Shown here: positions 1 to 17,002 of the stretch, piece after piece
Layout of the letters: every line of letters begins with the position of its first letter
How positions within the stretch are numbered: position 1 is the first letter of the stretch
Source: Candidatus Saccharimonadota bacterium
GTDB lineage: Bacteria; Patescibacteriota; Saccharimonadia; Saccharimonadales; UBA4665
Reading direction: 5' to 3'
DNA: 32,000 bases
Assembly (NCBI GenBank): GCA_963716945.1
Contig: OY970322.1
Location: 210,001 to 242,000, forward strand
Translations under genes and position numbers: made by a program
The notes under the pieces: model-generated
The model's input: only the letters and a program-made list of their open reading frames with translations
What the model was told of the DNA's origin: nothing
The model's database searches: none

Positions 1-1
1 C

Positions 2-751
2 AGTCTGCGGACCAGGCTGTCGTTCGAAGTCGGCATGACCCAGCTTGGCGGCCACGCTGTTTACCTGGCACCCGAGGACATCAAGCTCGGCGTACGTGAA
101 ACCGTCCACGACACGGCGATTGTCATCGGCAGCATGGCCGACGTAATCATGGCCCGGGTTTCCAGCCATGAGGCGGTACAAGAGCTGGCCGAGTACTCCA
201 AGGTACCGGTCATCAACGGCATGACCGACCTGGAGCACCCGTGCCAGGTACTGGCCGACCTGCAAACTATCTATGAGCGGTTCGGCACTTTCGAAGGCAT
301 TAGGATGGCTTATTTAGGCGATGCTGACAACAATGTCACTAATTCGCTGGCCCTGGCGGCCGGCCTGCTGGGCATGGAAATGAGTATTGCCGCCCCCAAA
401 GGCTACGAACTTTCGCCGGACATCGCCGCTAGAGCCGGCCGGTTGTCGCAATTTGATAATCCACAGGCGGCCGTCAAAGGGGCCCAGGTAGTCGTGACCG
501 ACACTTGGGTCAGCATGGGCAAAGAGACCGAACGCGCCGAACGGCTTAAAGACCTGTCGCCGTTCCAGGTTAATCAGGAACTGATGGCTCTGGCCGACAA
601 AAAAGCTATCTTCATGCACTGCCTGCCGGCTTACCGCGGCAAAGAAATGACCGCCGAAGTCATTGACGGTCCCCAGTCGGCCGTGTTCGCCGAAGCCGAA
701 AACCGCATGCATGCCGAAAAGGCCTTGCTGCTGTACGTGCTGGCCCCCTAA
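2..751 (+). CDS. argF: ornithine carbamoyltransferase (5' end outside window)
   Basis: The frame is open from base 2 (SLRTRLSFEVGMTQLGGH). It carries the HPCQVLADL and FMHCLPA motifs typical of OTCases and sits in an arg/car gene context. Confidence 0.9.
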   Translation, partial: SLRTRLSFEVGMTQLGGHAVYLAPEDIKLGVRETVHDTAIVIGSMADVIMARVSSHEAVQELAEYSKVPVINGMTDLEHPCQVLADLQTIYERFGTFEGIRMAYLGDADNNVTNSLALAAGLLGMEMSIAAPKGYELSPDIAARAGRLSQFDNPQAAVKGAQVVVTDTWVSMGKETERAERLKDLSPFQVNQELMALADKKAIFMHCLPAYRGKEMTAEVIDGPQSAVFAEAENRMHAEKALLLYVLAP

Positions 752-764
752 TAGGTTCTGGTTC

Positions 765-3700: not shown

Positions 3701-4049
3701 CGATAAGCTTGATGTTGTGCTTCTTCAAGATGCCTTGCTCATGCAGCTCCATCGCCAGGTTAAGCGCGGTCTGTCCCCCCAGCGTCGGCAGGATCACGTC
3801 CGGCCGTTCCTTGATGATTATTTGTTCCAGAACCTCGGCCGTTAGCGGTTCGACATAGGTGCTGTCGGCGAAATCGGGGTCGGTCATGATGGTGGCCGGA
3901 TTGGAGTTGGCTAGGATAATCCGGTAACCTTCGGCCCGCAATACCCGGCAGGCCTGGGTACCGGAATAGTCGAATTCGCAGGCCTGCCCGACGACAATCG
4001 GGCCGCTGCCGATGATAAGGATGCTCTTGATGTCGGTGCGTTTCGGCAT
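765..4049 (-). CDS. carB: carbamoyl-phosphate synthase large subunit
   Basis: 1094 aa with duplicated ATP-grasp halves ([34 protein letters not shown] and [36 protein letters not shown]). Its start is interlocked with the carA stop. Confidence 0.97.
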
Positions 4050-5116
4050 TAGCGGTGTGCCTCCATCATGGCTTTGAAGCGGTCAAACAGGTAGCCGGCA
4101 TCGTGCGGCCCCGGTCCGGCCTCGGGGTGGTATTGGACGCTGAAGGCGGGGTAGCGGGTGCTTTTGATGCCCTCGATGACACCGTCGTTGAGGTTGCGGT
4201 GGGTAACGACCGCGTCCCGCAGGCTGCTTTCGACGACGGTGAAGTTATGGTTCTGGCTGGTGATTTCGACCTTGCCGTTATCCAAGTCCTGGACCGGATG
4301 GTTGGCGCCGTGGTGGCCGAACGGCATCTTTTCGGTTTTGGCGCCAAGCGCCGTGGCCAGCAGTTGATGGCCGAGGCAGATACCGAAAACCGGCACCGTG
4401 CCCAGCATTTGCCTGACGGTCTCGACGCCGTAATCTATTATTTCGGGGTCGCCGGGGCCGTTGCTCAAGAAAAGCCCGTCGGGCCGGGTGGCTAGGATTT
4501 GTTGTTTCGTGGCACTGGCCGGCAGGATTGTCACGGTCGCGAACTTGGCCAGATGGTCGAGGATCGAGGTTTTGATGCCGAAATCGAGGGCAGTAATCCG
4601 GAACTTGCCCGAACCTCGTTTATAAGGTCTGGCGGCGGAAACCGTTTTGACGAGATCCACGCCGCCGGTACCGGGCTCCTTCTTGGCGGCAGCCAGCAGC
4701 ACTTTTACGGGAGCGGTGCCGAAAGCCCCCGGCAACGAGCCGTATTGCCTGATGTGGCGGGTCAGTTTGCGGGTGTCGAGGCCGCTGATGGCGCTGATAC
4801 CGGCGGCTTCCAGCCACTGTGCGAGTGATTGGCCGGCCCGGTAGTTGCTATAGTGCTCGTCATAATCACGCACGATCAGACCGCGGGCAAAGATGCCGCA
4901 GCTTTCGTTATCCGCCTGGTTAACGCCGTAGTTGCCGATGTGCGGATTGGTAAAGCTTATAATCTGGCCGGCATAGCTGGGGTCGGACAGAATTTCCTGA
5001 TAACCGCTGAGGGCCGTATTGAACACCACTTCGCCGCTGCTGACGGGCTTCTCAGCGCCGAAAATCTGACCCTCAAAAACCGTGCCATCCTTTAATACCA
5101 AAGCCCCGGGTGTCAT
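4049..5116 (-). CDS. carA: carbamoyl-phosphate synthase small (glutaminase) subunit
   Basis: GATase-1 motifs are present (GICLGHQLL catalytic Cys, [13 protein letters not shown]). I chose the start at Met29 of the ORF-track call ([11 protein letters not shown]), because the longer form would overlap the argC start and the divergent promoter. Confidence 0.93.
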
Positions 5117-5125
5117 TAAAGGCTC

Positions 5126-5131
5126 ATTGTA
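5126..5131 (-). promoter_or_regulatory. -10-like hexamer TACAAT, 9 nt upstream of the revised carA ATG
   Basis: Minus strand reads agtTACAATgagccttta-ATG. No SD is visible. Confidence 0.35.
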
Positions 5132-5173
5132 ACTGTGTTTTTCAGCCCCCGCAAGGTGTAAGCGCCCGGCTTC

Positions 5174-5182
5174 TGGTATAAT
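5174..5182 (+). promoter_or_regulatory. extended -10 (TGGTATAAT), 8 nt upstream of the argC ATG; putative leaderless promoter
   Basis: Sequence is TGGTATAAT-taatagag-ATG with no SD between. Confidence 0.55.
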
Positions 5183-5190
5183 TAATAGAG

Positions 5191-6213
5191 ATGGAGACAA
5201 AAAATATCAAAGTCGGAATCGTCGGCGTATCCGGCTATTCCGGCCGCGAGCTGCTCAGGTTTTTGCTTGACCACCCCCGGGCCGACGTAGTCTACGTATC
5301 GGCAAACACCACGGTTGGCAAGGTCGCCGATCTGTGGCCGGAGTTTGCCGGCCGGACGGAACTGGTCTGCGAGCCTTACCAAGTTGACGAAGCCGCCAAG
5401 GCCGACCTGGTTTTCCTGGCCACGCCCCACACTGTCAGCATGCGCCTGGCGCCCGAGCTGATAGACCGCGGCCTCAAGGTCATAGACATCAGCGGCGACT
5501 TCCGCCTGTCATCGCCCGAAGAATACGCCAAGTGGTATAAGGCCGATAAGCATGCCGCGCCGCACCTGTTGCCGGACGCGGTTTACGGCTTGCCGGAGAT
5601 TTATAGCGACCGGATTAAGGGCGCCAACCTGGTCGCCAACCCCGGCTGTTACCCGACCGTCAGCATCTTGGCGGTGGCGCCGTTGGCCCAACTTGGTATA
5701 ACCAGCGTCCATATCGACGCCAAATCGGGGGTCAGCGGTGCCGGCATCGCCCACACCGAACGGCTGATGGCCGAGATGAAAGACAATTTCCGGGCCTACA
5801 AAGTCCTGGCCCACCAGCACAGCCCGGAAATCGTCGAACAGCTTTCGCTGCTGGCCGGCCGGCCCTTGCCGATTGCTTTCGTGCCTCACCTGTTGCCGTT
5901 AGAGCGCGGAATTTTCGCGACGGTTTATGTCAGCTTGCGCGAGCCTTTGGAGCCGGCGGCGGCCCAGCGCCTATTCGAGGATTTCTACGGCCAGGCCGCT
6001 TTCGTAGAAGTCGTGCCCGAAACCGAAGAGCTTGAGCTCAAAACCGTCGTCGGCACCAACAAAATGCAAATTCATGTCGCCGCCGCGCCCGACCAAAACC
6101 TACTGGTCGTCACGGCCACAATCGATAATTTAATCAAGGGTGCTTCCGGCCAGGCCATCCAGAATTTCAACCTGATCTATGGTTTTGACGACAAGACGGG
6201 GCTCGGCTCATGA
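5191..6213 (+). CDS. argC: N-acetyl-gamma-glutamyl-phosphate reductase
   Basis: Has VGIVGVSGYSGRELLRFL (Rossmann) and the NPGCYPT catalytic Cys motif. There is a 4-nt ATGA overlap with argJ. Confidence 0.95.
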   Translation: METKNIKVGIVGVSGYSGRELLRFLLDHPRADVVYVSANTTVGKVADLWPEFAGRTELVCEPYQVDEAAKADLVFLATPHTVSMRLAPELIDRGLKVIDISGDFRLSSPEEYAKWYKADKHAAPHLLPDAVYGLPEIYSDRIKGANLVANPGCYPTVSILAVAPLAQLGITSVHIDAKSGVSGAGIAHTERLMAEMKDNFRAYKVLAHQHSPEIVEQLSLLAGRPLPIAFVPHLLPLERGIFATVYVSLREPLEPAAAQRLFEDFYGQAAFVEVVPETEELELKTVVGTNKMQIHVAAAPDQNLLVVTATIDNLIKGASGQAIQNFNLIYGFDDKTGLGS

Positions 6214-7355
6214 CTAAGACCGACGGCGGCATCCTGGCCGCCAAGGGCTTCAAGGCCGGCAGCGCCGAGGCGGGGATTAAAGCCGCCGGCGGCCTGGACC
6301 TGGGTATTATATGGTGCGAAACGCCGGCGGCAACGGCCGCGATTTTCACCCAAAACAGCGTTCTCGCCGCGCCGGTCCAGCTCAGCCGGCCGCGCGCCAA
6401 GAACGGCGACGCCCAAGCCATAGTCGTCAACAGCGGCAACGCCAACTGCATGACCGGCGAAACCGGCAAGCAGCACGCCGGACAGATGACCCGCGACACG
6501 GCTAAATTACTCGGTATCGACGAAGCCAAGGTTCTGGTGGCTTCGACCGGCATAATCGGCAAACCGCTGCCGATAGATAACGTTCTAAACGGTATCGGGG
6601 CCGCTTTCGCCCAAGCCGCCTCGTCGGCACAGGCCGCGGCCGACTTCGCCCAGGCCATCACCACGACCGACACGGTTACCAAAACCGTCGCTTACGAATG
6701 TGAAATCGGCGGCCAGACAGTAACCGTCGGCGGCTGCGCCAAGGGCTCGGGCATGATGCAGCCGAACATGGCCACCATGCTGGCCTTCCTGACTACCGAT
6801 GCCGCCATAGCGCCCGGGCTGCTCGACCAAGCGCTCCGCGAGGCTGCCCGGACCACCTTCAATTCAATTACCGTCGACGGCATGACCAGCACGAACGACA
6901 TGCTGGCGATTATGGCCAGCGGCCAAGCCGGCAACGCAGCTATCAATGCAGAGAACGAGGCCTATAACACTTTCCTAGAAACGCTCCGGCAAGCCTGCCT
7001 GGACCTGGCGCTAATGATTGTCCGCGACGGTGAGGGCGCGACCGTGCTGGTCAAAGTCAACGTCAAAGGTGCCGCCGATTACGAACAGGCCAAGGCCATC
7101 GCTTACGAAGTCGCCAATTCGCCGCTGGTCAAAACCGCTGCCCACGGCCGGACCGGCAATTGGGGCCGCATCGCCCAGGCTATCGGCAAACTCGGCTTGC
7201 CGATCACCGAGGAGTCGCTTGAGATAGAGGCCGATAGCCCCTCGGACGACCAGCTTGACCTGACAATTACTACCAAGCTCGGATCGGCCGACGCCACCGT
7301 CTATACCTGCGATTTCAGCAAGGACTACATCGACATCAACGTCGCCTACAATTAA
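6210..7355 (+). CDS. argJ: bifunctional ornithine acetyltransferase / N-acetylglutamate synthase
   Basis: Has GCAKGSGMMQPNMATMLAFLTTDA, including the conserved autoproteolytic A|TML site. Confidence 0.95.
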   Translation: MTKTDGGILAAKGFKAGSAEAGIKAAGGLDLGIIWCETPAATAAIFTQNSVLAAPVQLSRPRAKNGDAQAIVVNSGNANCMTGETGKQHAGQMTRDTAKLLGIDEAKVLVASTGIIGKPLPIDNVLNGIGAAFAQAASSAQAAADFAQAITTTDTVTKTVAYECEIGGQTVTVGGCAKGSGMMQPNMATMLAFLTTDAAIAPGLLDQALREAARTTFNSITVDGMTSTNDMLAIMASGQAGNAAINAENEAYNTFLETLRQACLDLALMIVRDGEGATVLVKVNVKGAADYEQAKAIAYEVANSPLVKTAAHGRTGNWGRIAQAIGKLGLPITEESLEIEADSPSDDQLDLTITTKLGSADATVYTCDFSKDYIDINVAYN

Positions 7356-7591
7356 GCACCGCCTTAAAGGGCCGGGCCAATCGGGTATACGCCGGGCCTG
7401 GACCGGCCGTTTTCAAGCACCCCCATAAGAACAGTATGAAAGCTATATGGAAACATATGTTTTGGTAATGTTTTGACACTGTTCCCGTACAGGCCTTGCG
7501 GAGCGCCAATAGAAGATAAGTCACAAGCATCTAAGACGGCCGCATGAACCGAGCTACGGCCCAGGCCGCCTGGAATACCCCCGCCGCCGTC

Positions 7592-7600
7592 TGTTAGAAT
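7592..7600 (+). promoter_or_regulatory. extended -10 (TGTTAGAAT), 7 nt upstream of the argD ATG; putative leaderless promoter
   Basis: Sequence is TGTTAGAAT-agaacga-ATG with no SD. Confidence 0.55.
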
Positions 7601-7607
7601 AGAACGA

Positions 7608-8777
7608 ATGACGCCGCAAGAATTTGACCAGTACGTTCTGCCAGCATACCAACGTTTCCCGATTACCATTGTCCGCGCTGAAGGCAGCTATATATATGAC
7701 AGCGAAGGCAAGCAATACCTGGACTTTCTCTCCGGCTGGGGGGTCTCCAATCTCGGCCACCGCCCGCCGGCCGTAGTCCAAGCCATCGAAAAGCAGGTCA
7801 AAGAGCTGATTCACGTTCCCAATGTTTTCTATACCGAGCAGCAGGGCCGGCTGGCCAAAATGCTGGTCGAAAACAGTATCGAAGGCAAGGTCTTCTTCGG
7901 CAACAGCGGTGCCGAAGCCAACGAAGCCGCCATCAAGTTCGCCAAACTCTACGGCCGGGGCCAAAGGCACAAGATAATTACCGCCGAACGGTCTTTTCAC
8001 GGCCGGACCTCGGCTACGATGGCGGCGACCGGGCAGACCAAAATCAAAACCGGGTTCGAACCGCACTTGCCCGGTTTCGTCCACGTGCCGCTCAACGATA
8101 CCCAAGCTCTGGTTAACGCCATAGACGCCCAGACGGTAGCCATAATGCTGGAGCTGGTCCAAGGCGAGGGCGGTATCAATATAGCCACGCCTCAATACCT
8201 GGCGGAGGTCAAGCGCGTTTGCCGTGAAAACGACCTCCTGCTAATTGTCGACGAAGTTCAATCGGGCATGGGCCGGACCGGACCCTTATTCGCTTACCAG
8301 AACCATGACCTGGAGCCTGATATCATAACCGTTGCCAAGGCGCTGGCCAGCGGCTTGCCGATCGGCGTTGCCATCGCCGGCAGCAGGGTCGCCGAACTCG
8401 TCAAGCCGGGTATGCACGGCAGCACTTTCGGCGGCGGAGCGCTGGTTTCGGCGGCGGCGATAGCGACTCTGGAGGTTATTCTGAAGCCTGAGACCGCCGA
8501 GAACGTAAAAGCGCTGACAGCCTTGCTGGCCGGCAAGCTTTCTGACCTGGCGGCCAAGCACGGCTGCATTACCGAACTGCGCCAGCAGGGCCTGATGATC
8601 GGCTTGGAGCTGGACCGCGATTCAGGTCCCGCCGCCGAGGCCTGTTTGCAGAAGGGGCTGTTTGTCAACAGCACCCAAGGCAACGTAATCCGGCTGCTGC
8701 CGCCGCTTAACGCTACCGCCGAAGAAGTCGAAACGGCGGTTGCCATATTGGATGAGGTGCTTCAAGCGCAAACATGA
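7608..8777 (+). CDS. argD: acetylornithine aminotransferase (class III PLP)
   Basis: Has GNSGAEANEAAIKFAK, DEVQSGMGRTG and the TVAKALASGLPIG PLP-lysine region. It overlaps argB by 4 nt. Confidence 0.93.
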   Translation: MTPQEFDQYVLPAYQRFPITIVRAEGSYIYDSEGKQYLDFLSGWGVSNLGHRPPAVVQAIEKQVKELIHVPNVFYTEQQGRLAKMLVENSIEGKVFFGNSGAEANEAAIKFAKLYGRGQRHKIITAERSFHGRTSATMAATGQTKIKTGFEPHLPGFVHVPLNDTQALVNAIDAQTVAIMLELVQGEGGINIATPQYLAEVKRVCRENDLLLIVDEVQSGMGRTGPLFAYQNHDLEPDIITVAKALASGLPIGVAIAGSRVAELVKPGMHGSTFGGGALVSAAAIATLEVILKPETAENVKALTALLAGKLSDLAAKHGCITELRQQGLMIGLELDRDSGPAAEACLQKGLFVNSTQGNVIRLLPPLNATAEEVETAVAILDEVLQAQT

Positions 8778-10060
8778 AAATCGCCGACTTACCAGCCAAA
8801 CAAGCCGAGCGCTACCTCAAGGATTTACAAAAATTTGAGGCCCACCGCCAATTACTGATCAAGGTCGGCGGCGGCCTGCTGGAGGACGAAACGGCAGTTC
8901 TGGAACTGTCCGAAGCTCTCGCCGAACTGGCCAGGCATGGCATTCACACGCTGCTTATTCATGGCGGCGGCCCGCAGCTCAGCGAGGCGATGAAGCGCTA
9001 CAAGGTCGATGCCCGGTTCATTGACGGCAAGCGCTACACCGACGAAGCGACGCTCAAACTGGCCAAGTCCGTCTTCGCCGGCCTAACGAACGACCTGGTA
9101 AAAGCGCTCCAGGCCAACGGCATTGACGCCGCGGCCCTGCCCGCCGAAGAGTTGTTCAAAGCCAAGCGTGACCCGGCCCTCGGTTTGGTCGGCACCGAAG
9201 TAACGTCCGTGGCGTCCAAGGCCATCATTGATGCCCTGAGCCGGGCCTCGGTACTGGTCCTGTACCCACTGGCCCGTGATACCGATACCGGTGAAACGCT
9301 TAACGTCAACGCCGACACTATTTTCCGGGCTTTGGCGACCGAGCTACAGCCCCACCGTATGACCAGCCTGAGCCCGACCGGCGGTGTCCTCAAGCTGATT
9401 GACGACACCGACGCCCACGAGATAATCAGCGGCATCGATATCCGCGACATAGAAGGCCTAATCGCCGAAGGCACCGTCAGCGGCGGCATGGCGCTGAAGC
9501 TGCGCGAACTGGCGACCATCCTCAGCCGCCTGGAAACCGGCTCAGCGATTTCGATTACCAAGCCGTCCGAGCTGCTGGCCGAGCTGCTGACCGACCAAGG
9601 CTCGGGCACTTTCGTCGGCAAAGGCCAGAAGATCATTACCACGACCGACATCGGCCCGGTCTTTAACGACTTTTCGGCGCTGATCGAAGAGGCGTTCGGC
9701 AAGGCCCTGCCCGCCGGCTATGATAAGAAACCATTCGAGAAAATCTACTTCACGGCCGACCACCAGGCGTTCGGCGTCGTGACCAGGCTATCAGACGGTA
9801 CGGCCTACCTCGACAAGCTGGCCGTTTCGCCCCAGCTGCAGGGCCGCGGCGTCGGAGAGAGCCTCTGGTATAAAATTACTGCCGACTACCCGGTCATACT
9901 CTGGCGCTCCCACGTCACTAACCGCTATTCGACCTGGTACCACCGGCACGCCGACATTATGAAACGCCATGGCGAATGGATTCTCTTCGGCCGCGGCGTC
10001 GATTTCCCGAAACTCGAAGCTATGACCGAGGAGCTGGCTGCCATTCCGGCCATGCGCTAG
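8774..10060 (+). CDS. argB: acetylglutamate kinase fused to a C-terminal N-acetyltransferase (NAGS/K-type) domain
   Basis: 428 aa. The N-terminal amino-acid-kinase fold has LLIKVGGG and LLIHGGGPQ. The C-terminal ~150 aa has AYLDKLAVSPQLQGRGVGESLW, which resembles the NAT domain of bifunctional NAGS/K enzymes. Confidence 0.85.
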   Translation: MKIADLPAKQAERYLKDLQKFEAHRQLLIKVGGGLLEDETAVLELSEALAELARHGIHTLLIHGGGPQLSEAMKRYKVDARFIDGKRYTDEATLKLAKSVFAGLTNDLVKALQANGIDAAALPAEELFKAKRDPALGLVGTEVTSVASKAIIDALSRASVLVLYPLARDTDTGETLNVNADTIFRALATELQPHRMTSLSPTGGVLKLIDDTDAHEIISGIDIRDIEGLIAEGTVSGGMALKLRELATILSRLETGSAISITKPSELLAELLTDQGSGTFVGKGQKIITTTDIGPVFNDFSALIEEAFGKALPAGYDKKPFEKIYFTADHQAFGVVTRLSDGTAYLDKLAVSPQLQGRGVGESLWYKITADYPVILWRSHVTNRYSTWYHRHADIMKRHGEWILFGRGVDFPKLEAMTEELAAIPAMR

Positions 10061-10083
10061 CTACCCGCCAACCCGGCTTAATC

Positions 10084-10092
10084 TGTTAAACT
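10084..10092 (+). promoter_or_regulatory. extended -10 (TGTTAAACT), 7 nt upstream of the argS ATG; putative leaderless promoter
   Basis: Sequence is TGTTAAACT-aagggca-ATG with no SD. Confidence 0.5.
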
Positions 10093-10099
10093 AAGGGCA

Positions 10100-11773
10100 A
10101 TGAAAGATGAGCTAGAGCAGCAAATCGCGGCGGCCTGCCAGGCCGAATTTGACGTCGAAGCCGGCATCGAACTGACCCGGCCCGAAGAACAGTTTGGCGA
10201 CTACGCCACCAACGCGGCTCTGCAATTATCCAAACAGCTGGGTAAGAATCCGCGCGAAATCGCCGAAACCCTGGCCGTGAAACTTCGCGAAACCTTACAT
10301 GAACAGATCAGCGAAGTAACGGTCGCCGGCCCGGGCTTCATCAACCTGAAGCTAAACGACGAAGCTCTAAAGACCTCACTCGAAGCCAAGCCGCGGCAAT
10401 CGCTGCAAGGCCAAACCGTAGTCGCCGAATACTCCGACCCCAACCCGTTCAAGGTCCTGCACGCCGGCCACCTCTATACCAGTGTCGTCGGCGACGCTAT
10501 CGGCAACTTGCTGGAGACAGCCGGCGCGACCGTCCACCGGGTAAATTTCGGCGGCGACGTCGGCCTGCACGTCGGCAAAACCATGTGGGCCATAATCCAA
10601 GAGCTAGGCGGTGAAAACCCGGACAAACTAGCGGCCGTTCCGGATGCCGGCCGTTCCGACTGGATGGCGCTAGCCTACGTCCAAGGCACCCGGGCCTACG
10701 AAGAAGACGAAGCCGCCAAACCCGAAATCATCGAACTCAACCAACGGGTTTACCGCCTTTACGCCGACAACGACCACGATTCGCCGTTCGCCCAAATATA
10801 CTGGACCTGCCGCCAGTGGAGTTACGACTACTTCGACAGCTTTTACGAACGCATCGGCACCGAATTCGAGAAATACTATCCGGAAAGCGAAACCGCTCCG
10901 CTCGGCCTGCAAACCGTCCGCGACCACATCGGTGAAGTTTACGAAGAAAGCGACGGCGCGGTCGTCTTCAACGGCGAGCAATACGGTTTGCACACCCGGG
11001 TTTTCATTAATTCCAACGGCCTGCCGACATACGAAGCCAAAGACGTCGGGCTGATCATGAAGAAGTGGCAGGACTACCGGTTCGACCAGTCAATCATCAT
11101 CACCGGCAACGACATCATCGAGTACATGAAAGTCGTCCTCAAAAGCATCGAGCAGTTCATGCCCGAATTATCATCGCGCAGCCGCCACTTGACGCACGGT
11201 ATCGTCAAACTGGCCGGCGGCACCAAGATGAGCAGCCGCCAGGGCAACATCCTGCGCGCCGCCGACGTGTTGACGGCCGCCGCCGAAGCCAATCAGCGGG
11301 CCGCCGGCCACGATGATGACCAGACCACCCTCGGCGCCGTCAAGTACGCCTTCCTGAAAATCAGGACCGGCGGCGACGTCATCTACGACCCGGCCGAGTC
11401 GGTCAGCCTGGAAGGCAATAGCGGTCCGTACCTGCAATACGCCCACGCCCGCGCCCGCTCGATCCTGCGCAAAGCCGGCGACGGACAGGCCAAACTGCCC
11501 GATGAGGCCGATTTCGAAGCCGGCGAGCGCTCGCTGGCCCGCAAAATCAGCGAATACTCCGAAACCGTCGACAAAGCCGTCGCCGAACTGATGCCGCACC
11601 ACGTCTGCGCCTACCTCTACGAATTGGCCCAGGTTTTTAACCGTTTCTACGAGCACAACCGGGTCATCGGCGACGGCCGGCAGGACGTGAGGCTGGCGCT
11701 GGTCGGCCGCTATGCCGAGACCCTGCGTTCCGGCCTGGAACTGCTAGGCATTGCCGCGCCGGAACAGATGTAG
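10100..11773 (+). CDS. argS: arginine--tRNA ligase
   Basis: 557 aa class I aaRS with a HIGH-type motif (LHAGHLYT), a KMSKS-type motif (GTKMSSRQGN) and a DALR-like C-terminus. Confidence 0.96.
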   Translation: MKDELEQQIAAACQAEFDVEAGIELTRPEEQFGDYATNAALQLSKQLGKNPREIAETLAVKLRETLHEQISEVTVAGPGFINLKLNDEALKTSLEAKPRQSLQGQTVVAEYSDPNPFKVLHAGHLYTSVVGDAIGNLLETAGATVHRVNFGGDVGLHVGKTMWAIIQELGGENPDKLAAVPDAGRSDWMALAYVQGTRAYEEDEAAKPEIIELNQRVYRLYADNDHDSPFAQIYWTCRQWSYDYFDSFYERIGTEFEKYYPESETAPLGLQTVRDHIGEVYEESDGAVVFNGEQYGLHTRVFINSNGLPTYEAKDVGLIMKKWQDYRFDQSIIITGNDIIEYMKVVLKSIEQFMPELSSRSRHLTHGIVKLAGGTKMSSRQGNILRAADVLTAAAEANQRAAGHDDDQTTLGAVKYAFLKIRTGGDVIYDPAESVSLEGNSGPYLQYAHARARSILRKAGDGQAKLPDEADFEAGERSLARKISEYSETVDKAVAELMPHHVCAYLYELAQVFNRFYEHNRVIGDGRQDVRLALVGRYAETLRSGLELLGIAAPEQM

Positions 11774-11790
11774 CATAATAGTCCCAGACT

Positions 11791-12312
11791 ATGGCGAAAA
11801 AATCTCAGCGGCAAAATTCCGGCAGGGCAACCAATACCGGCGGCACCATCCGTTTCGAAATACCGGCCAGCAGCCGCCAGGCCAAGCAGCAGGTTATTAT
11901 TACTCCCGACATTCATCCGGTCAGCGGTTTCGTCGATTTCCTGCGCGAACACGCCGTCGTCGGCCTGGCCATCGGTTTCGTCATCGGTACGCAGGTGCAG
12001 TCGCTGGTCAAGCAACTGGTCTCCAGCTTCATCGACCCGCTGTTCAAGCTGCTGCTGGGGCAGGCTTTGAGCCAGCGTACTTTCACGCTGCACTGGCACG
12101 GCCGGGCGGCCAACTTCGGCTGGGGCGCTTTCGTTTACGCCCTGCTGGACTTCATTTTCGTACTGGCCGTCATCTATGTCGTCGTCAAATCTCTGCACCT
12201 CGACGAACTGGATAAGCCCAAGCACAAGCCCAAACACCAGGGCAAGCTGCGCAAAAAAGTAGAAGAACTCAAAGTCGAACTGGAGGACGAAGAAGATGAA
12301 ATTATCGGATGA
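11791..12312 (+). CDS. mscL: large-conductance mechanosensitive channel with N-terminal extension
   Basis: [39 protein letters not shown] matches the MscL TM1 signature. A second TM and a charged C-terminal helix are present. Confidence 0.8.
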
Positions 12313-12685
12313 CGAGTGGAAAACCAAGCTCACCCCGGAGCAATACCACATCCTGCGCGAGAAGGGCACCGAAGCCCCGTTCACCGGCAAGCTATTGAAC
12401 CAGCACGGCACCGGCGACTTCATCTGCGCCGCCTGCGGCGCGGTGGTCTTCAAGAGCGACACCAAGTTCGACAGCGGCAGCGGCTGGCCGAGCTTCTACG
12501 ACCCGGCCAACACCGAAGCCGTCAAGCTCACCGAAGACACCAGCCTCGGTATGCACCGGGTCGAAGTCCAGTGCGCCAATTGTGGCAGCCACTTGGGCCA
12601 CGTTTTCAACGACGCGCCCGACCAGCCCACCGGCATGCGCTTCTGTATCAACTCGGCCGCCCTCGACTTCAAAGAAAAGAAATAG
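12296..12685 (+). CDS. msrB: peptide-methionine (R)-S-oxide reductase
   Basis: Two CxxC zinc motifs ([21 protein letters not shown]) and a catalytic RFCINS Cys. Confidence 0.95.
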
Positions 12686-12736
12686 TACGACCTAGCCTGC
12701 AGCGATTACCGGAACCGGATTGACGTATCCTCATTA

Positions 12737-12800
12737 TGTCTAAAATTAAACATAAATTGTTATAATTGAACAATTATCTCAGTAAATTTACTTTTTGCAA
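12737..12800 (+). repeat. copy A of a 64-bp AT-rich upstream module (promoter plus conserved leader)
   Basis: An ungapped hand alignment to 14952-15015 gives 54/64 identical positions. It contains TGTTATAAT and the 10-bp palindrome GTAAATTTAC. Confidence 0.85.
12758..12766 (+). promoter_or_regulatory. extended -10 (TGTTATAAT) for the 12859 operon; predicted ~85-nt leader ending in an AAGGAG SD
   Basis: Consensus TGnTATAAT lies inside repeat copy A, and AAGGAG sits 8 nt before the ATG at 12859. Confidence 0.55.
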
Positions 12801-12858
12801 CTTACCTGTCACTATATCCCGGTAAAGCTCTAGCAAAATAATTCAAGGAGAATACTTT

Positions 12859-13617
12859 ATGTCAGGAAGTGAAGGCGCTCCTGCTGACCCGGGACAAGAC
12901 CCTGCTATAGTCGATCCGGCAGCGGCAAACCAAGCTGACCAAACTTTAAGCCCTGAGCAAATGGCAGCCCGGGCTGAGGAACGCATGGAAGACGTTTATG
13001 ACATCGTTGTAAGCGGCGGCATCGTACGTAATACCCTGGAATTTGGGCATGATCCCAGTAGGCCCGACGATGTATTAACCCCCGCCCTGTATACGGACGG
13101 GGTTGGGATTGCAACTGCACCCGGAGAGAAAGGCGTTGGCATGGAAGCCCCGGTTACGGGAGTCCACGCCAATCGTCCAGATACAGTACCGAGCCCGTTT
13201 AAATCTAGGGAACAGCCCCTGGACCGACCGGATGCAAGCCTAGACTTTTCTCCTGATGGTCGTTACATGTCGCGGCCAAGTCGCGGCCGAGAAGGGCGCG
13301 CAAAGGTACCTCGTTTTGTGAGACTTGTTACGAGAAACGAACAAGGCGAACCTATATATGAAGATGAAGCTTTCCATCTCAAAGACGGCCTGCGCGGCTA
13401 TGCCGTCCAAAGAAAGACTCTTGAAGGTGCCGGTGACGCTCAATACGACCAGGAACCGCATACCGACGTAGAAGAGTTTACTAGGATTGTCACTGAAGCC
13501 ACTGACATAGTTTTGGCTGCGACTAAGGCTCGTGCGGAACAGGAACAGGCGAAACGTACGGTAGCCGAAGCAAGACTTGTAGTAATGGCCGCAAAGGCAC
13601 TGGCTGACTTTAATTAG
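12859..13617 (+). CDS. hypothetical protein (orphan, acidic, largely low-complexity/disordered-looking, coiled C-terminus)
   Basis: 252-aa ORF with a strong SD (AAGGAG-N8-ATG). Its codon usage is AT3-rich relative to its neighbours. I recognise no motif, TM segment or signal peptide. Confidence 0.7.
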   Translation: MSGSEGAPADPGQDPAIVDPAAANQADQTLSPEQMAARAEERMEDVYDIVVSGGIVRNTLEFGHDPSRPDDVLTPALYTDGVGIATAPGEKGVGMEAPVTGVHANRPDTVPSPFKSREQPLDRPDASLDFSPDGRYMSRPSRGREGRAKVPRFVRLVTRNEQGEPIYEDEAFHLKDGLRGYAVQRKTLEGAGDAQYDQEPHTDVEEFTRIVTEATDIVLAATKARAEQEQAKRTVAEARLVVMAAKALADFN

Positions 13618-13632
13618 GGGGTAAACCAAATC

Positions 13633-14262
13633 ATGACAAGAGAACAAGTATCCGCCGATCCGGCTACAGACCTGCCTACACATGATCCGGTGGCACCCCA
13701 GGAACAAGGCCACGAGGCTGATATATTTACCCGTGAGGCAGAGGCCAAACGGGTTATACACGACTCGGCCGGTGCTTTAATGGAGCGTCTCAGACCGGGA
13801 AAGCCGTTTAGGCTCGTACTTGATGTACAGCGCGGTGAACGGGAGCCTGATTCAGCAGGTTTCTATAGGGCATTTCCGCAGGGCACACTTTACCTATATA
13901 CAGAGGTTGACCAAAGAGCGGGTGAACACTATTACGAAATCGGCGAAGCGATGATAAGACCTATTACACTTGATGGGCGTCGAGGCGGCCCAGTCGACAG
14001 TGCTAAACAAGTAGAAGCGGCAATGATTAGTGAGAATTTTCTTGGAAACTTTCAGGATGGTGAAGCGCGTACCAACGATCATCACGACGGCTTGCGCTTT
14101 AGGTTGGCAAGAAGCGCTCGACAGGAAGAGATCGATCCTCGCGCTACCGACGAACGAGTCGTAGCAATACAAGAGATATTAGGCCGAGCTTTGCAGGAAG
14201 TTGTTGGTCGGCTGGAAGCGTCCCAGCAGTCTCAGGAGGCAAATCCGTCCCCAGTAGCCTAA
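13633..14262 (+). CDS. hypothetical protein (orphan)
   Basis: 209-aa ORF starting 15 nt after the previous stop, with an AGGGGG SD-like element upstream. It uses the same atypical codons. I recognise no motif. Confidence 0.65.
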   Translation: MTREQVSADPATDLPTHDPVAPQEQGHEADIFTREAEAKRVIHDSAGALMERLRPGKPFRLVLDVQRGEREPDSAGFYRAFPQGTLYLYTEVDQRAGEHYYEIGEAMIRPITLDGRRGGPVDSAKQVEAAMISENFLGNFQDGEARTNDHHDGLRFRLARSARQEEIDPRATDERVVAIQEILGRALQEVVGRLEASQQSQEANPSPVA

Positions 14263-14945
14263 TGATGGGATGCGGCTCCAGAGCCTTGTTTTTTGACGGT
14301 CTGAAGACCCTGGCGGATTGAGGCGACGGCGCGGTCGACCTCGAAATCGCGGACGACCATCATGATTTCGTTCAGGGTGGTGATGATTTCGATGACCGAA
14401 ATGCCTTCCCAGGCCAGGATGCGCAACGGAAATTGCAGCACGCCGGTGGTTTCGATCTGGCCGTGGGTGCGTTGCAGGCTGATGCCGGTCAGGTCCGGAA
14501 TCGTGCTGACGATAGTCTCGTCTTTGAGCGCCGCCTTAAGGTCTTTGTCCAGGCTTTTACTGGTGATAATTGTGGTTTCGTGCTGGCCCTGGGTGAAGAC
14601 GAACAGCGACGTGTGCCGGTCGTCCATTGCCTGGGCCATGAGCGACAATTTGGCTAGCAGGGCGGGGGAGTTCTTGACTGTCAGTTCGAATAGGTCAGAC
14701 CTGAGCGCCATATTGGCCAGATAATCAGCCGGGTTAACCTGGTAATAGGGCTTCATGGCCGCGGCGTAGCGCTGCAGCGCGATGAATACGGCACTTTCGC
14801 TTACATCCTTAACCAGATCTTTCTCGATCTGCGGCTTGAGCTGCCGGGCCAGGGCCGACAAATTGACCAGTTTGTCAGACATCGCCTCGCGCAGGTAAGG
14901 CGACTGGTTGACGAGTTCTTCGACTTTTTCGGGAATCGTGATCAT
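14259..14945 (-). CDS. ACT-domain-like small-molecule-binding protein (aspartokinase C-terminal-like)
   Basis: 228 aa with host-like GC and codon usage. The C-terminal ISVIEIITTLNEIMMVVRDFEVDRAVASIRQ resembles an ACT beta-alpha-beta-beta-alpha-beta unit. The family call is from memory only. Confidence 0.4.
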   Translation of the reverse strand: MITIPEKVEELVNQSPYLREAMSDKLVNLSALARQLKPQIEKDLVKDVSESAVFIALQRYAAAMKPYYQVNPADYLANMALRSDLFELTVKNSPALLAKLSLMAQAMDDRHTSLFVFTQGQHETTIITSKSLDKDLKAALKDETIVSTIPDLTGISLQRTHGQIETTGVLQFPLRILAWEGISVIEIITTLNEIMMVVRDFEVDRAVASIRQGLQTVKKQGSGAASHH

Positions 14946-14959
14946 TAGCTCTGTCTAAA

Positions 14960-14967
14960 ATTATACA
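14960..14967 (-). promoter_or_regulatory. extended -10 (TGTATAAT) for the ACT-like gene
   Basis: Minus strand reads TGTATAAT-N14-ATG(14945). It lies inside repeat copy B. Confidence 0.5.
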
Positions 14968-14975
14968 TTACTTAT

Positions 14976-14981
14976 TATATA
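14976..14981 (+). promoter_or_regulatory. -10-like hexamer TATATA for the 15061 ORF (positional equivalent of the TATAAT in copy A)
   Basis: It aligns column-for-column with 12761-12766. AAAGGAG lies 10 nt before the ATG at 15061. Confidence 0.45.
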
Positions 14982-15060
14982 TGAACAATTATATCAGTAA
15001 TTTTACATTATGCAAGTGTTTATGTTGTAATTGTCCTGCTATGAAAGGAGCAGCTATTAA

Positions 15061-15918
15061 ATGAGCGAGCAAGCCAAACAAGAGAATCTAGTCGTTGCCG
15101 GTGTTCAGTTGCCTATCACAAGCAATGAAGTATTTATAGAACCAGCGCTTAGTACTGTGTTGGAAGCGGCAGAGGCAAGCCTAAAGGACCATGAAGGTGC
15201 CGAGGGCGACACCTCATCTTATCCTTTTCGTCTTGCCCAGTATGCGGTCCTTGGCGTAACTGAGCTCGCCGCGGTCAGCAATCTGCTCAAATCTCCTGAG
15301 CAAACAGACCAGCTTCTAGCAGCTATAAGCGATCAAAGAGGCAGCTTCTGGGAGGTATTTGACCCTTCGGCGGCGCACAAAGGCCTTACTACATCATCGC
15401 TTGAGTGGGCTAAGCAACAACTGGCTACCGACGCTCCATTAGACGCTGTAGAGATTAAGGACGGTCAAGGCAATTCAATAACTGCCGGGATAAGAGGATT
15501 TATTGAAAAAGTGAGACTTGAAGGGGGTAGGCCTTATGAAATGAGACAGCCAGAACTTTGGGTTAATGTATCAGGCCCAGGTGGTGGGAGCGCTCATTCT
15601 ATTATCCTTGATTACCGGGCTAAGCTTAGGGGCGCTGAAAGAGGCGTATATGCGAGTAAACTTGAGCGCTGGACGCTGAACTGGCAGTCTAGGGAATCGG
15701 GGCATCGACATATGCGCCAGCTGGCCACTCTGGTGCCTTTCTATGGGTCCACGGGCGACTGGATGCGTCTGGTGGACAGGGAAGAGCTAATAGATGGTCA
15801 TTCAGGCGATATTCTTACGAGAACACAATACAGAGTCTTGACCCCTGCCACGGGCGTGGTTCGGAGTGACTCCGCAGTGTACGATAGGAGAGTGATTGAT
15901 AATATGCTGAACGACTAA
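15061..15918 (+). CDS. hypothetical protein (orphan)
   Basis: 285-aa ORF with a strong SD and many AGA/AGG/CTT/GGT codons that are rare in neighbouring genes. I recognise no motif, TM segment or signal peptide. Confidence 0.7.
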   Translation: MSEQAKQENLVVAGVQLPITSNEVFIEPALSTVLEAAEASLKDHEGAEGDTSSYPFRLAQYAVLGVTELAAVSNLLKSPEQTDQLLAAISDQRGSFWEVFDPSAAHKGLTTSSLEWAKQQLATDAPLDAVEIKDGQGNSITAGIRGFIEKVRLEGGRPYEMRQPELWVNVSGPGGGSAHSIILDYRAKLRGAERGVYASKLERWTLNWQSRESGHRHMRQLATLVPFYGSTGDWMRLVDREELIDGHSGDILTRTQYRVLTPATGVVRSDSAVYDRRVIDNMLND

Positions 15919-16280
15919 GTGCGTCCGGAGTACTTAGTGCCCCAAGCGGCCATTTGCTTGAGGATGGGGAGGAGGTCGGTGCCTTTGGAGGTGAGGGCGT
16001 ATTCGGTGCGGGGCGGGACTTCGGCGTAGCTTTTGCGGGTAATGATGCCTTCGGCTTGCAGGTCGTCCAGGCGTTGGCTGAGCGTGCGGGGGTTGATGCT
16101 GCCGACCGAGCGTTCGAGTTCGCAGAAACGTTTCGGGCCGCTGAACAGGTCGCGCAGGATTAGTGCGGTCCATTTGTTGCCGATGATTTGCATGGCACTG
16201 GCGATGCAGCCGACGTGCGGCTCCAGCGGCTTGGCTGCCGCGGCGCGGGGACTGGCTTGCGTAACTGAGGCGGTTTTCAT
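15915..16280 (-). CDS. HxlR-family winged-helix transcriptional regulator
   Basis: GNKWTALILRDLFSGPKRFCELERSV..INPRTLSQRLDDLQAEGIITR...PPRTEYALTSKG is the canonical HxlR pattern. Confidence 0.9.
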   Translation of the reverse strand: MKTASVTQASPRAAAAKPLEPHVGCIASAMQIIGNKWTALILRDLFSGPKRFCELERSVGSINPRTLSQRLDDLQAEGIITRKSYAEVPPRTEYALTSKGTDLLPILKQMAAWGTKYSGRT

Positions 16281-16290
16281 AGCTTTACAA

Positions 16291-16312
16291 AGTATAGTTA
16301 TGCATCTATACT
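16291..16312. promoter_or_regulatory. inverted repeat AGTATAG-N8-CTATACT (candidate HxlR operator)
   Basis: Perfect 7-bp arms lie in the 77-bp divergent intergenic region. A third AGTATAG copy is at 16335-16341. Confidence 0.5.
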
Positions 16313-16357
16313 GGTTAGATTAATAACTATAAAAAGTATAGCATAGGAGAACAAAAT

Positions 16358-16954
16358 ATGAAACTAGCTGTTATCATCGGTGCTACCCGCCAAGGCCGCA
16401 AAACCCCGCAGCAGGCCAAATGGGTGGCTAACACCGCCAAAGGAATGAAGGACGTCGAAGTTGAATTGATCGACCTTAAAGACTATCCGATGCCATTCTT
16501 TGACGAGCCGGTCTCACCGCGTTATAACCCCGACCGCCAGATTGACCCGGCCGTTAAGCCTTGGCTCGACAAGCTGACCGCGGCCGATGCTTACGTGTTC
16601 GTGACACCTGAGTATAATCACTCGGTTACCGGCGTCCTCAAGAACGCTCTGGACTACGTCACCTGGGAACTGCAGCGCAAACCGGCGCAAGTGGTTTCGC
16701 ATGGCGCGGCCGGCGGCGCCCGGGCCGCGACCGACCTCAAGGAAATCCTGTCCGAGAGCAAGGCCGTGCCGCTGCCGACGTACTCGCCGCTGGCCATGGC
16801 CGGTATGAGCGAGATGATCGACGAGGCGGGTAATTTGTCCGAAGCCGCCAAGGCGAACCCCTACGGACCGCAAACTGCCTTGGGGACCATGCTGGATGAG
16901 TTAAAATGGTACAGCGACGCGCTGGCCGCGGCTCGCACCGAAAATCAGACATAG
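16358..16954 (+). CDS. NAD(P)H-dependent FMN reductase family oxidoreductase
   Basis: Has the FVTPEYNHSVTGVLKNALDY signature and a flavodoxin-like N-terminus. It is divergent from the HxlR gene, a common pairing. An AGGAG SD is present. Confidence 0.85.
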   Translation: MKLAVIIGATRQGRKTPQQAKWVANTAKGMKDVEVELIDLKDYPMPFFDEPVSPRYNPDRQIDPAVKPWLDKLTAADAYVFVTPEYNHSVTGVLKNALDYVTWELQRKPAQVVSHGAAGGARAATDLKEILSESKAVPLPTYSPLAMAGMSEMIDEAGNLSEAAKANPYGPQTALGTMLDELKWYSDALAAARTENQT

Positions 16955-16975
16955 TCCGAGAGACTTATGTGTTCA

Positions 16976-17002
16976 AAAAGAGCCCTTAGGGGCTTCTTTT
17001 TG
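16976..17002 (+). terminator. rho-independent terminator (A-tract, GC hairpin, T-tract)
   Basis: Sequence is aaaaagAGCCCttagGGGCTtcttttt, 22 nt after the FMN-reductase stop. Confidence 0.7.

Follow-up and report, generated by a model that had tools for sequence, protein, structure and literature searches.

Why should a 64-nucleotide (nt) AT-rich sequence stand twice, 2.2 kb apart, in front of unrelated genes of a Candidatus Saccharimonadota genome? The question arises in a 32,000-nt stretch of contig OY970322.1 (assembly GCA_963716945.1, positions 210,001 to 242,000), the whole of which we call the window, where a reading made from the sequence alone had noted the duplication. We argue below that this module is quite probably a compact sigma-70-type divergent promoter and control region that was duplicated long ago, that is, an instance of promoter reuse. 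The two copies and the genes around them are as follows, with L-numbers designating the loci compared with the window:

12737..12800, plus strand: copy A, the derived duplicate (orthologues at L018 7523-7586, L017 7513-7576 and L014 119-182)
14952..15015, plus strand: copy B, the ancestral divergent control region, 6 nt from the DUF7523 ATG
12801..12858, plus strand: A-type leader and Shine-Dalgarno (SD) sequence (AAGGAG 12845-12850), dissimilar to the sequence after copy B
12859..14262, plus strand: two-gene orphan operon downstream of copy A (12859-13617, 252 aa; 13633-14262, 209 aa)
14259..14945, minus strand: DUF7523/tandem-ACT gene (228 aa; Pfam DUF7523), lacking an SD and running leftward from copy B
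15061..15918, plus strand: orphan gene (285 aa) to the right of copy B, with the SD AAGGAG at 15045-15050

The copies form an ungapped direct repeat with a spacing of 2215 and 54 of 64 positions identical (84%), just as the sequence-only reading had stated, and they constitute by far the longest repeat that a search of 11000-17000 returned. At the local composition of about 18% GC (match probability 0.353), a match at 54 or more of 64 positions has a chance of 8.5e-16, which becomes about 4e-7 across all position pairs in the 32 kb. The similarity ends sharply on both sides, the flanking 20-mers matching at only 3-7 of 20 positions. The 24-nt core GAACAATTATNTCAGTAANTTTAC has just two sites in the window with up to 3 mismatches allowed (none expected, from 100 shuffles), and a profile hidden Markov model of the module found neither a third copy in the window at E<=10 nor a further copy in the other fetched loci. 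The representative genome of one relative, when scanned, gave just two module matches, both at this locus, and in one pattern scan each of the genome and metagenome collections the true copies were confined to the same syntenic neighbourhood. Thus, the alternative raised along with the original observation, a generic AT-rich motif upstream of many genes, was not seen in the window, the fetched loci or that relative's genome, and we reject a dispersed repeat or generic promoter, as the true copies lie in one syntenic neighbourhood only and the core-only matches are due to chance. L005, L007, L009-L011, L015 and L016 were discarded as module copies for matching the core only. A match at L004 599-632 on the minus strand (Taishania sp., Bacteroidota), with 26 nt identical to the copy A core (TTGAACAATTATCTCAGTAAATTTAC), was likewise judged to be chance, as it lies inside a coding gene, within the 3' end of this 199-aa gene, and has dissimilar flanks.

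Syntenic loci were gathered by pattern scans and by look-ups of DUF7523 homologues; the related genomes are deposited as "Candidatus Dormiibacterota" metagenome-assembled genomes, and L018 represents the same genome as L003, L008, L013 and L019. Orthologues of copy B occupy the same place in L002, L018, L017, L012, L023, L028, L020 and L026, and the copy is retained in part only in L022 and L024. It begins 3-6 nt from the conserved DUF7523 ATG in nine genomes, with the rightward start codon about 45-60 nt beyond; in the window, copy B ends 46 nt from the ATG at 15061 and copy A 59 nt from that at 12859. Copy A was found in three further related genomes (L018, L017 and L014). In the window, L018 and L017 it stands in the same place and is followed by a conserved leader and then by the 252-aa orphan or its orthologue, the latter at 44-49% identity (L018, 255 aa, 46%; L017, 251 aa, 44%), and L002, L023, L020 and L028 have neither copy A nor the 252/209-aa orphan genes. 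Because copy B accompanies DUF7523 in all relatives examined, and copy A with its genes is present only in a subset, copy B is the ancestral form, native to the divergent intergenic region beside the DUF7523/ACT gene, and copy A an old duplicate, made before these genomes split. This bears out the suggestion that one copy stems from the duplication of a bidirectional promoter region. The A type carries C at module position 42 in all four copies, and A at position 13 and T at position 56 in three of the four each.

The module has diverged far less than neutral evolution would predict: in DUF7523, fourfold-degenerate sites show 25-44% identity, and are hence saturated, as against 71-92% for the B module in the same genome pairs. 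Orthologous A copies are conserved from TGTCTA up to the start codon, with 81% mean column identity for module plus A-type leader across four genomes, and the DNA just upstream is unalignable. Positions 17-31 are the sole variable stretch of the module, in which the sequence varies and the length is fixed. As a control we used the HxlR/FMN-reductase (flavin mononucleotide reductase) intergenic region, which is equally conserved (80% mean column identity among L002, L018 and L017) around a TTTACA-17-TATACT element and repeats. Conservation of this order is therefore normal for promoter or operator DNA here, and no unusual mechanism is needed for it.

When read on the minus strand, copy B takes the form TTGCAT-AATGTAAAATTAC-TGA-TATAAT-TGTTCATA-TATAAT-AAGTAATG-TATAAT-TTTAGACAGAGCTA-ATG, which resembles a stack of sigma-70-like promoters with three TAnnnT hexamers at 14-nt intervals. 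The predicted leftward elements are:

15010..15015, minus strand: distal -35 of copy B, TTGCAT (TTGCAA in most relatives)
14988..14996, minus strand: distal extended -10 of copy B, TGATATAAT, with a 16-nt spacer to the -35 TTGCAT
14974..14979, minus strand: middle TATAAT of copy B, overlapping the plus-strand TATTAT 14973-14978 in a symmetric bidirectional geometry
14960..14965, minus strand: proximal -10 TATAAT of copy B, with the -35 TTGTTC at 14983-14988 (spacer 17), 14 nt ahead of the DUF7523 ATG
12745..12778, minus strand: degraded leftward hexamers of copy A (GATAAT 12773-12778, TATAAC 12759-12764, TTTAAT 12745-12750)

The distal element TTGCAA-16-TGnTATAAT is seen in 10/10 B copies; its TGnTATAAT varies solely at 'n' (A or C) and receives the top promoter score of any position (9.6-11.5). 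The proximal element TTGTTC-17-TAnnnT is retained in nine of the ten, and the middle hexamer keeps TAnnnT at a fixed place in eight despite the variable surroundings of positions 17-31. The DUF7523 ATG lies 11-14 nt past the proximal -10 among the B copies (7 nt in L022), which, together with the missing SD, fits a very short leader. In the B copies, where the leftward gene is present, T1, A2 and T6 are kept in 27 of 30 hexamers, as opposed to 3 of 12 in the A copies, to the left of which there is the end of a co-directional gene and nothing to transcribe (Fisher p = 8e-5, with shared ancestry ignored). Among the losses, GATAAT is shared by the four A copies and TTTAAT or TTTAAC by three of them, and TATAAC and TTTAAA occur once each. 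The sequence-only reading had already recognised this difference in the window, where the minus strand has the consensus-bearing TGTATAAT in B versus TGTTTAAT in A, and the orthologues extend it, TAnnnT being conserved in B copies and lost in A copies. Thus, the substitutions follow promoter rules, in that spacers vary, TGnTATAAT changes only at its 'n' and the hexamers are kept where there is a leftward gene, and this supports a divergent promoter.

A TGn-extended -10 also stands 6-8 nt ahead of the start codon of several other genes of the window. For the starts at 5191(+), 7608(+), 10100(+), 11791(+), 23566(-) and 31920(-) the best promoter-like hit is a -10 that ends 6-11 nt ahead, and five of these six elements are TGn-extended. 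Leaderless or near-leaderless mRNAs therefore seem to be common in this genome.

In the opposite direction, we noted the following candidate elements, the last of which is that proposed in the sequence-only reading:

15002..15007, plus strand: candidate rightward -35 of copy B, TTTACA (module positions 51-56)
15023..15031, plus strand: candidate rightward extended -10 of copy B, TGT-TGTAAT, 18 nt after the -35 and outside the 64-nt repeat
12787..12792, plus strand: candidate rightward -35 of copy A, TTTACT
12807..12815, plus strand: candidate rightward extended -10 of copy A, TGT-CACTAT, 17 nt after the -35 and outside the repeat
12758..12766, plus strand: earlier proposed -10 of copy A (TGT-TATAAT), a good extended -10 in this genome only

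TTTAC (positions 51-55) is invariant in 14/14 module copies, position 56 being A or T. The arrangement of TTTAC(A/T), 17-18 nt, and TGn plus a hexamer ending in T is found in 10 of these 14 (copy B of the window, L002, L018, L023, L020 and L026, and four A copies); L012, L028 and L017 have such a hexamer in copy B without the TG, so that a hexamer ending in T stands at that distance in 13/14. In B the hexamer reads TGTAAT or TTTAAT, and in A it reads CACTAT, CATGAT or CATTAT. TGT-T(G/T)TAAT recurs at the same place in 6 of the 8 aligned B regions, and TG(T/G)-CA(C/T)(T/G)AT in 4/4 A copies at a fixed distance. Elements of the same style are present elsewhere in the window, such as TTTACA-17-TATACT ahead of 16358 (FMN reductase, conserved) and TTGCAA-16-TATACT ahead of 22200, and TGG-TTTAAT is also predicted as the -10 of gene 23566. 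From this best-conserved candidate promoter, rightward transcription would begin near 15038 and 12822. In both directions the -35/-10 spacing of 16-18 nt is conserved among orthologues while the spacers vary, and the copies lie between or immediately upstream of the start codons served, in a layout that is the same in nine relatives.

The gene served on the right of copy B differs from genome to genome: in the window and L002 it belongs to the 285-aa family, in L017 and L028 it encodes a tandem asparaginase-like protein of 370 aa, and the products in L018, L020, L023, L026 and L012 have 345, 153, 458, 221 and 157 aa, respectively. BLASTP and profile searches of 25 neighbouring proteins detected no homology among these cargo families, the only families found being the 285-aa, 252-aa and asparaginase-like ones, which are unlinked. 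The adjacent orphans of the window are not paralogous either (E = 0.12 for the 252-aa and E = 3.8 for the 209-aa protein against the 285-aa one in BLASTP). Similarity between genomes stops just past the proposed rightward -10. In this way the module provides, next to a conserved gene, a fixed expression slot in which unrelated orphans replace one another.

The orphan proteins of 252, 209 and 285 aa had no match in Pfam, NCBIfam, PADLOC or PHROGs, and the 285-aa protein has a single homologue (48% identity) among 5.8e9 proteins; homologues of the orphan genes (12859-14262 and 15061-15918) number one to a few at most. These three genes have a GC content of 0.51-0.54 (neighbours 0.56-0.66) and a slightly positive GC skew on the coding strand, the coding strands of the neighbours having C>G. 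A family resembling the asparaginase N-domain (GGTIDS motif) recurs beside the module, either as a tandem two-domain protein (362-370 aa) or as a single-domain one (172 aa), and constitutes the rightward cargo of copy B in L017 and L028:

L017 4780-5892, L028 3785-4891, L020 4175-5263; L018 7640-8158, L006 720-1238: asparaginase-like family

L006 also holds a B-like copy (1278-1341, plus strand) with the three leftward TATAAT intact, but this is not next to DUF7523: it sits behind the co-directional 172-aa asparaginase-like gene, no clear open reading frame (ORF) follows it, and its rightward -10 site is poor (CAGCAG).

The course of events that we favour is the following. In copy B, TTGCAA-16-TGnTATAAT, the middle TATAAT and TTGTTC-17-TATAAT would express the SD-less DUF7523 gene leftward on a very short leader. 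Rightward, the copy would supply at least the -35 (TTTACA), with the TGn-extended -10 just past the repeat, and drive the gene in the neighbouring slot, which in the window is the 285-aa orphan. The duplicate, set behind msrB, would have kept the rightward promoter and gained a leader of its own, would no longer have a consensus in any of its three leftward -10 hexamers, and would now drive the 252/209-aa orphan operon. Which of the hexamers are in use is an inference. It is plausible that both copies answer the same signal and that the 12859 operon and the 15061 gene are under common control, as the sequence-only reading had supposed.

Several points weigh against this scheme. The Fisher test given above takes no account of shared ancestry, and the A-type losses may amount to only 4-5 events. 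The A that is usual at position 2 is missing from half of the proposed rightward -10 hexamers (TTTAAT, TGTAAT), and, since AT-rich DNA is rich in promoter-like hexamers, the predicted promoter assignment is not unique. A plus-strand TATTAT or TATAAT at positions 22-30 in 9-10 of the 14 copies would put the conserved 34 nt of the module into the transcript. The conservation of the module, being equalled in the HxlR/FMN-reductase region, by itself singles out no special mechanism. Finally, a model consisting of promoters only leaves the invariant TGTCTA of every copy unexplained and gives no reason why positions 1-50 stay conserved in A copies, where no gene runs leftward.

The TGTCTA block belongs to a symmetric feature to which a protein other than RNA polymerase may bind, with the form TGTCTA-N4-TAnACA:

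14952..14967, no strand assigned: imperfect dyad TGTCTA-N4-TATACA of copy B (copy A, 12737-12752, has TGTCTA-N4-TAAACA)

It is possible, though doubtful, that a transcription factor on TGTCTA-N4-TA(T/A)ACA, perhaps using the right block too, co-regulates the ACT gene, the 285-aa orphan and the 252/209-aa operon; such a factor would be an addition to the promoter model and not an alternative to it. The dyad TGTCTAAAATTATACA occurs in the window solely at the two copies (0.2 expected), and an operator there would account for the fact that A copies retain their left half. All copies share T1 G2 T3 / A14 C15 A16 and T5 A6 / T11 A12, the symmetric positions, and position 13, the base by which A and B differ, is a non-symmetric one. 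The dyad is present in every module copy and even at L024 4939-4954, where it persists despite a spoiled proximal -10 (TATAGA) and the loss of the remaining module. However, the dyad overlaps the proximal leftward -10, its discriminator, the start region and a possible mini-ORF (see below), and its conservation therefore has other possible causes. No candidate binding protein was found, and the repeats of the neighbouring HxlR regulator, at 16282-16342, are different ones. By eye, the spacing of TGAACAATTATATCA and TTATACA misfits what we take to be the consensus of ARG, DnaA and SOS boxes.

We considered the DUF7523/ACT protein itself as the regulator of the module. Homologues are found throughout the lineage (123, at 33-95% identity), and their N-terminus is conserved. 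In the AlphaFold2 model (predicted local distance difference test score, pLDDT, 87.6) the C-terminal 150 aa form a tandem ACT unit like the regulatory subunits of aspartokinase (Foldseek E = 6e-9). Residues 1-72 (14721-14945, minus strand) form a four-helix N-terminal domain, modelled alone at pLDDT 88, in which N28, S30, R34 and P38 are invariant. This domain found no fold match in the PDB (Foldseek, best E = 9.6), profiles of the full-length protein and the N-domain had no DNA-binding match among PDB sequences, and Pfam detected no helix-turn-helix in the N-domain. With aspartokinase regulatory subunits as the only match of the model and no known fold matching the N-domain, there is no support for DUF7523 as the DNA-binding regulator of the module. 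We found no papers on DUF7523 and nothing relevant on promoters or start sites in Saccharibacteria. In L002, a low-GC relative, the DUF7523 orthologue (9215-9893, minus strand; P0105) was called at just 139 aa, with 83% identity over 58% of the query; similar DNA runs on past the called end and the B module ahead is intact, and a frameshift, a pseudogene or an assembly error could underlie the short call.

A different role had been assigned to the right half of the module in the sequence-only reading. It placed the rightward -10 at positions 22-30 (TGTTATAAT in copy A and TATATA in copy B, both of which are indeed present), which would set the start just past this hexamer, near GAACAA. The downstream 34 nt (GAACAATTAT.TCAGTAA.TTTAC.TT.TGCAA) would then form a shared mRNA 5' end, acting as a leader RNA element or as an operator proximal to +1. 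In copy A the proposed element is a perfect extended -10 and the best plus-strand hit for gene 12859. TAnnnT at positions 22-27 or 25-30 is found in 9-10 of the 14 copies, and with the minus-strand TATAAT at 28-23 it makes up a symmetric bidirectional arrangement (PMC10268837). This placement would also account for the fact that A copies keep TGTCT, as a weak -35, along with the right half of the module. Nevertheless, we consider it unlikely. The hexamer falls in the sole variable stretch and has no TAnnnT, and hence is unusable, in L018A, L020B, L023B and L028B, although the module is kept there; its TG is missing from the other three A copies, and L018A has TTTTAA / TAAATA in its place. Read on the opposite strand, the right half of the module comes close to the consensus of an extended -10 promoter, and variation there is limited to the 'n' of TGnTATAAT. 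Moreover, the better-conserved rightward promoter sets the predicted start downstream of the 64-nt block, which would leave the 34 conserved nt outside any shared leader.

Nor did RNA analyses favour a leader element. Rfam gave no hits in the whole window at the gathering threshold, and just one chance snoRNA match, located elsewhere, when 12000-16500 was searched at E<=5. Single-sequence folds of both copies on both strands were not stabler than shuffles (z +0.05 to +1.44), and RNAalifold recovered no plus-strand pairs from the eight B regions and four invariant pairs on the minus strand. The folding and covariation analysis that the sequence-only reading had called for thus yields nothing past a weak hairpin in the A-type leader (-3.4 kcal/mol, 12 weak pairs of which one is compensatory, in RNAalifold with 4 sequences), and an RNA element was rejected. 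The palindrome quoted in that reading as an operator is present as given, with GTAAATTTAC in A and GTAATTTTAC in B, but it is not conserved in L020, L023, L026 and L028, distant copies having CAGTTCTTTTAC or CAGTTTTTTTAC instead; we therefore rejected it in this role.

The left block of the module could also be read as part of a very short coding sequence:

14945..14968, minus strand: possible, uncertain mini-ORF MYNFRQS (ATG TAT AAT TTT AGA CAG AGC TAA), the stop of which overlaps the DUF7523 ATG (TAATG)

That it is a possibly leaderless upstream ORF (uORF; M-Y-N-F-R-H/Q, 6-9 codons), coupled to the SD-less ACT gene through the overlap of stop and start, appears improbable, despite certain regularities. 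A start (A/T/G-TG) stands at the same position in 15/15 copies, with a TAnnnT 5 nt upstream of it in ten of them. The stop overlaps the DUF7523 start (ATGA/TAATG) in 6 of 11 B copies and falls 1-2 nt short in three more, the linker from TGTCTA to the ATG measuring 6, 6, 6, 6, 6, 6, 3 and 3 nt in eight of ten copies. Leaderless genes also appear to be common here, and DUF7523 has no SD while leadered genes carry AAGGAG. However, the block is conserved at the level of nucleotides, AGA and TTT being invariant including their third positions, and residues 3-4 vary (N/S/I/R and F/S/I) and half of the starts are TTG. The A copies keep the block without a downstream gene, the ORF there continuing for 9 to >27 unconserved codons. 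The regularity of frame may reflect just one or two indel events, and the block fits a -10 plus start-site region equally well. The block itself is seen in all module copies (e.g. L018 5971-6003 and L026 4971-5003).

The promoter interpretation requires neither the dyad as operator nor the mini-ORF. A combination of these ideas, in which the module is the control site of a lineage-specific unit not described before, with the dyad as operator and/or a leaderless six-codon ORF (MYNFRH/Q) coupled in translation to a stand-alone tandem-ACT sensor, has in our judgement only a slim chance of being correct. If true, such a unit would tie rapidly replaced orphan genes to an amino-acid signal, and the duplicated slot would be a second slot of this kind.

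It is very improbable that a mobile or recombination element shuttling orphan cassettes has the module as its end or attachment site: the right-of-B genes are unrelated among genomes (285, 345, 370, 458, 153, 221 and 157 aa) and the window copies, in direct orientation, flank the 252/209-aa operon and the DUF7523 gene, but no integrase, transposase or terminal inverted repeats were found at the locus, all copies lie in a single syntenic neighbourhood (msrB ... DUF7523 ... HxlR), PHROGs and PADLOC gave no hits, matches to viral contigs were weak and core-only (14-16 bits versus 34-60 bits for true copies), and the A and B copies, long diverged and kept apart, are a poor fit to active mobility. 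A phage or defence origin was rejected on the grounds that the viral-contig matches are chance and that PHROGs and PADLOC gave no hits. Nor does the module resemble a miniature mobile element of the MITE (miniature inverted-repeat transposable element), Correia or REPIN-like kind, there being two copies at one locus with no terminal inverted repeats reported.

The locus adjoins the end of an arginine-biosynthesis/ArgS cluster (window 1-12685), the gene names of which rest on Pfam matches of an identical Logan contig (L001) and the syntenic locus L002:

765-4049: carB
4049-5200: carA
7608-8777: aminotransferase
8774-10060: AA-kinase/NAT gene
10100-11773: ArgS

Between this cluster and copy A stand two further genes:

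11791-12312: MscL
12296-12685: MsrB

To the right of the 285-aa orphan there is the leftward HxlR regulator and then the FMN reductase gene at 16358. Their intergenic region (16281-16357) contains the paired repeats CAAAGTATAG / AAAAGTATAG in a 27-nt inverted repeat in addition to TTTACA-17-TATACT, and is probably an HxlR operator plus promoter. A replication origin near 12.8 kb, where the cumulative GC skew has a minimum, was rejected: coding strands have C>G and the minimum tracks gene orientation, and hence it offers no evidence for an origin.

If the module is a divergent promoter, the locus would represent a clean natural case of promoter reuse, with a two-way region copied and the copy having lost one direction, and both copies are held by selection across genomes with saturated synonymous sites. 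It would also offer a usable promoter model (TTTACA or TTGCAA as -35, TGn-extended -10 and frequent near-leaderless starts) for an uncultured lineage without transcript maps, and it points to the conserved expression slot that adjoins the DUF7523/ACT gene. We see no new class of mechanism here; the value of the locus lies in being an aid to annotation and a small case study of regulatory evolution by ordinary bacterial promoter reuse.

Among known systems, leader RNAs and riboswitches share with the module the presence of a conserved non-coding block ahead of non-homologous genes; unlike them, it has no Rfam hit, stable fold or covariation, and at 18% GC it reads as promoter hexamers. Mycobacteria reportedly have leaderless short upstream ORFs that are coupled to downstream genes, and the possible mini-ORF would resemble these in opening a few nt past a -10 and ending at the start of an SD-less gene. 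It differs in being a possibility read from sequence, with no run of a sensed amino acid, with TTG for half of its starts and with a block that is kept where no gene follows.

Bidirectional sigma-70 promoters (Warman et al. 2021, cited in PMC10268837; PMC12825309) have overlapping -10 elements on opposite strands, with reciprocal pairing of -7T and -11A, and starts about 18 bp apart. The AT-rich copy B would similarly serve both strands, its TATTAT at 14973-14978 (+) overlapping TATAAT at 14979-14974 (-) with the one-base offset that would give this distance between starts, and this symmetric geometry at positions 22-28 is seen in 7/10 B copies and 2/4 A copies. Unlike the promoters described there, the module has as its best-conserved elements three leftward hexamers at 14-nt intervals and not one symmetric -10, and its rightward -35 (TTTACA) stands 2 nt from the leftward -35 (TTGCAA).

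A further parallel is with putative mobile promoters (Matus-Garcia, Nijveen & van Passel 2012, as summarised in PMC3575422), where promoter reuse means that upstream regions (about -150 to -50) of non-homologous genes in one genome share at least 80% identity over at least 50 nt. The A/B pair, with unrelated downstream proteins and 84% over 64 nt (-122..-59 and -109..-46 relative to the starts), is of this sort, and, like most of the families described there, it has no Rfam family and no known mobile element. It departs from them in that its copies lie 2.2 kb apart in one locus and are not dispersed, in that its duplication is old with both copies under selection in several genomes, and in that the donor would be a two-way region whose copy lost one direction.

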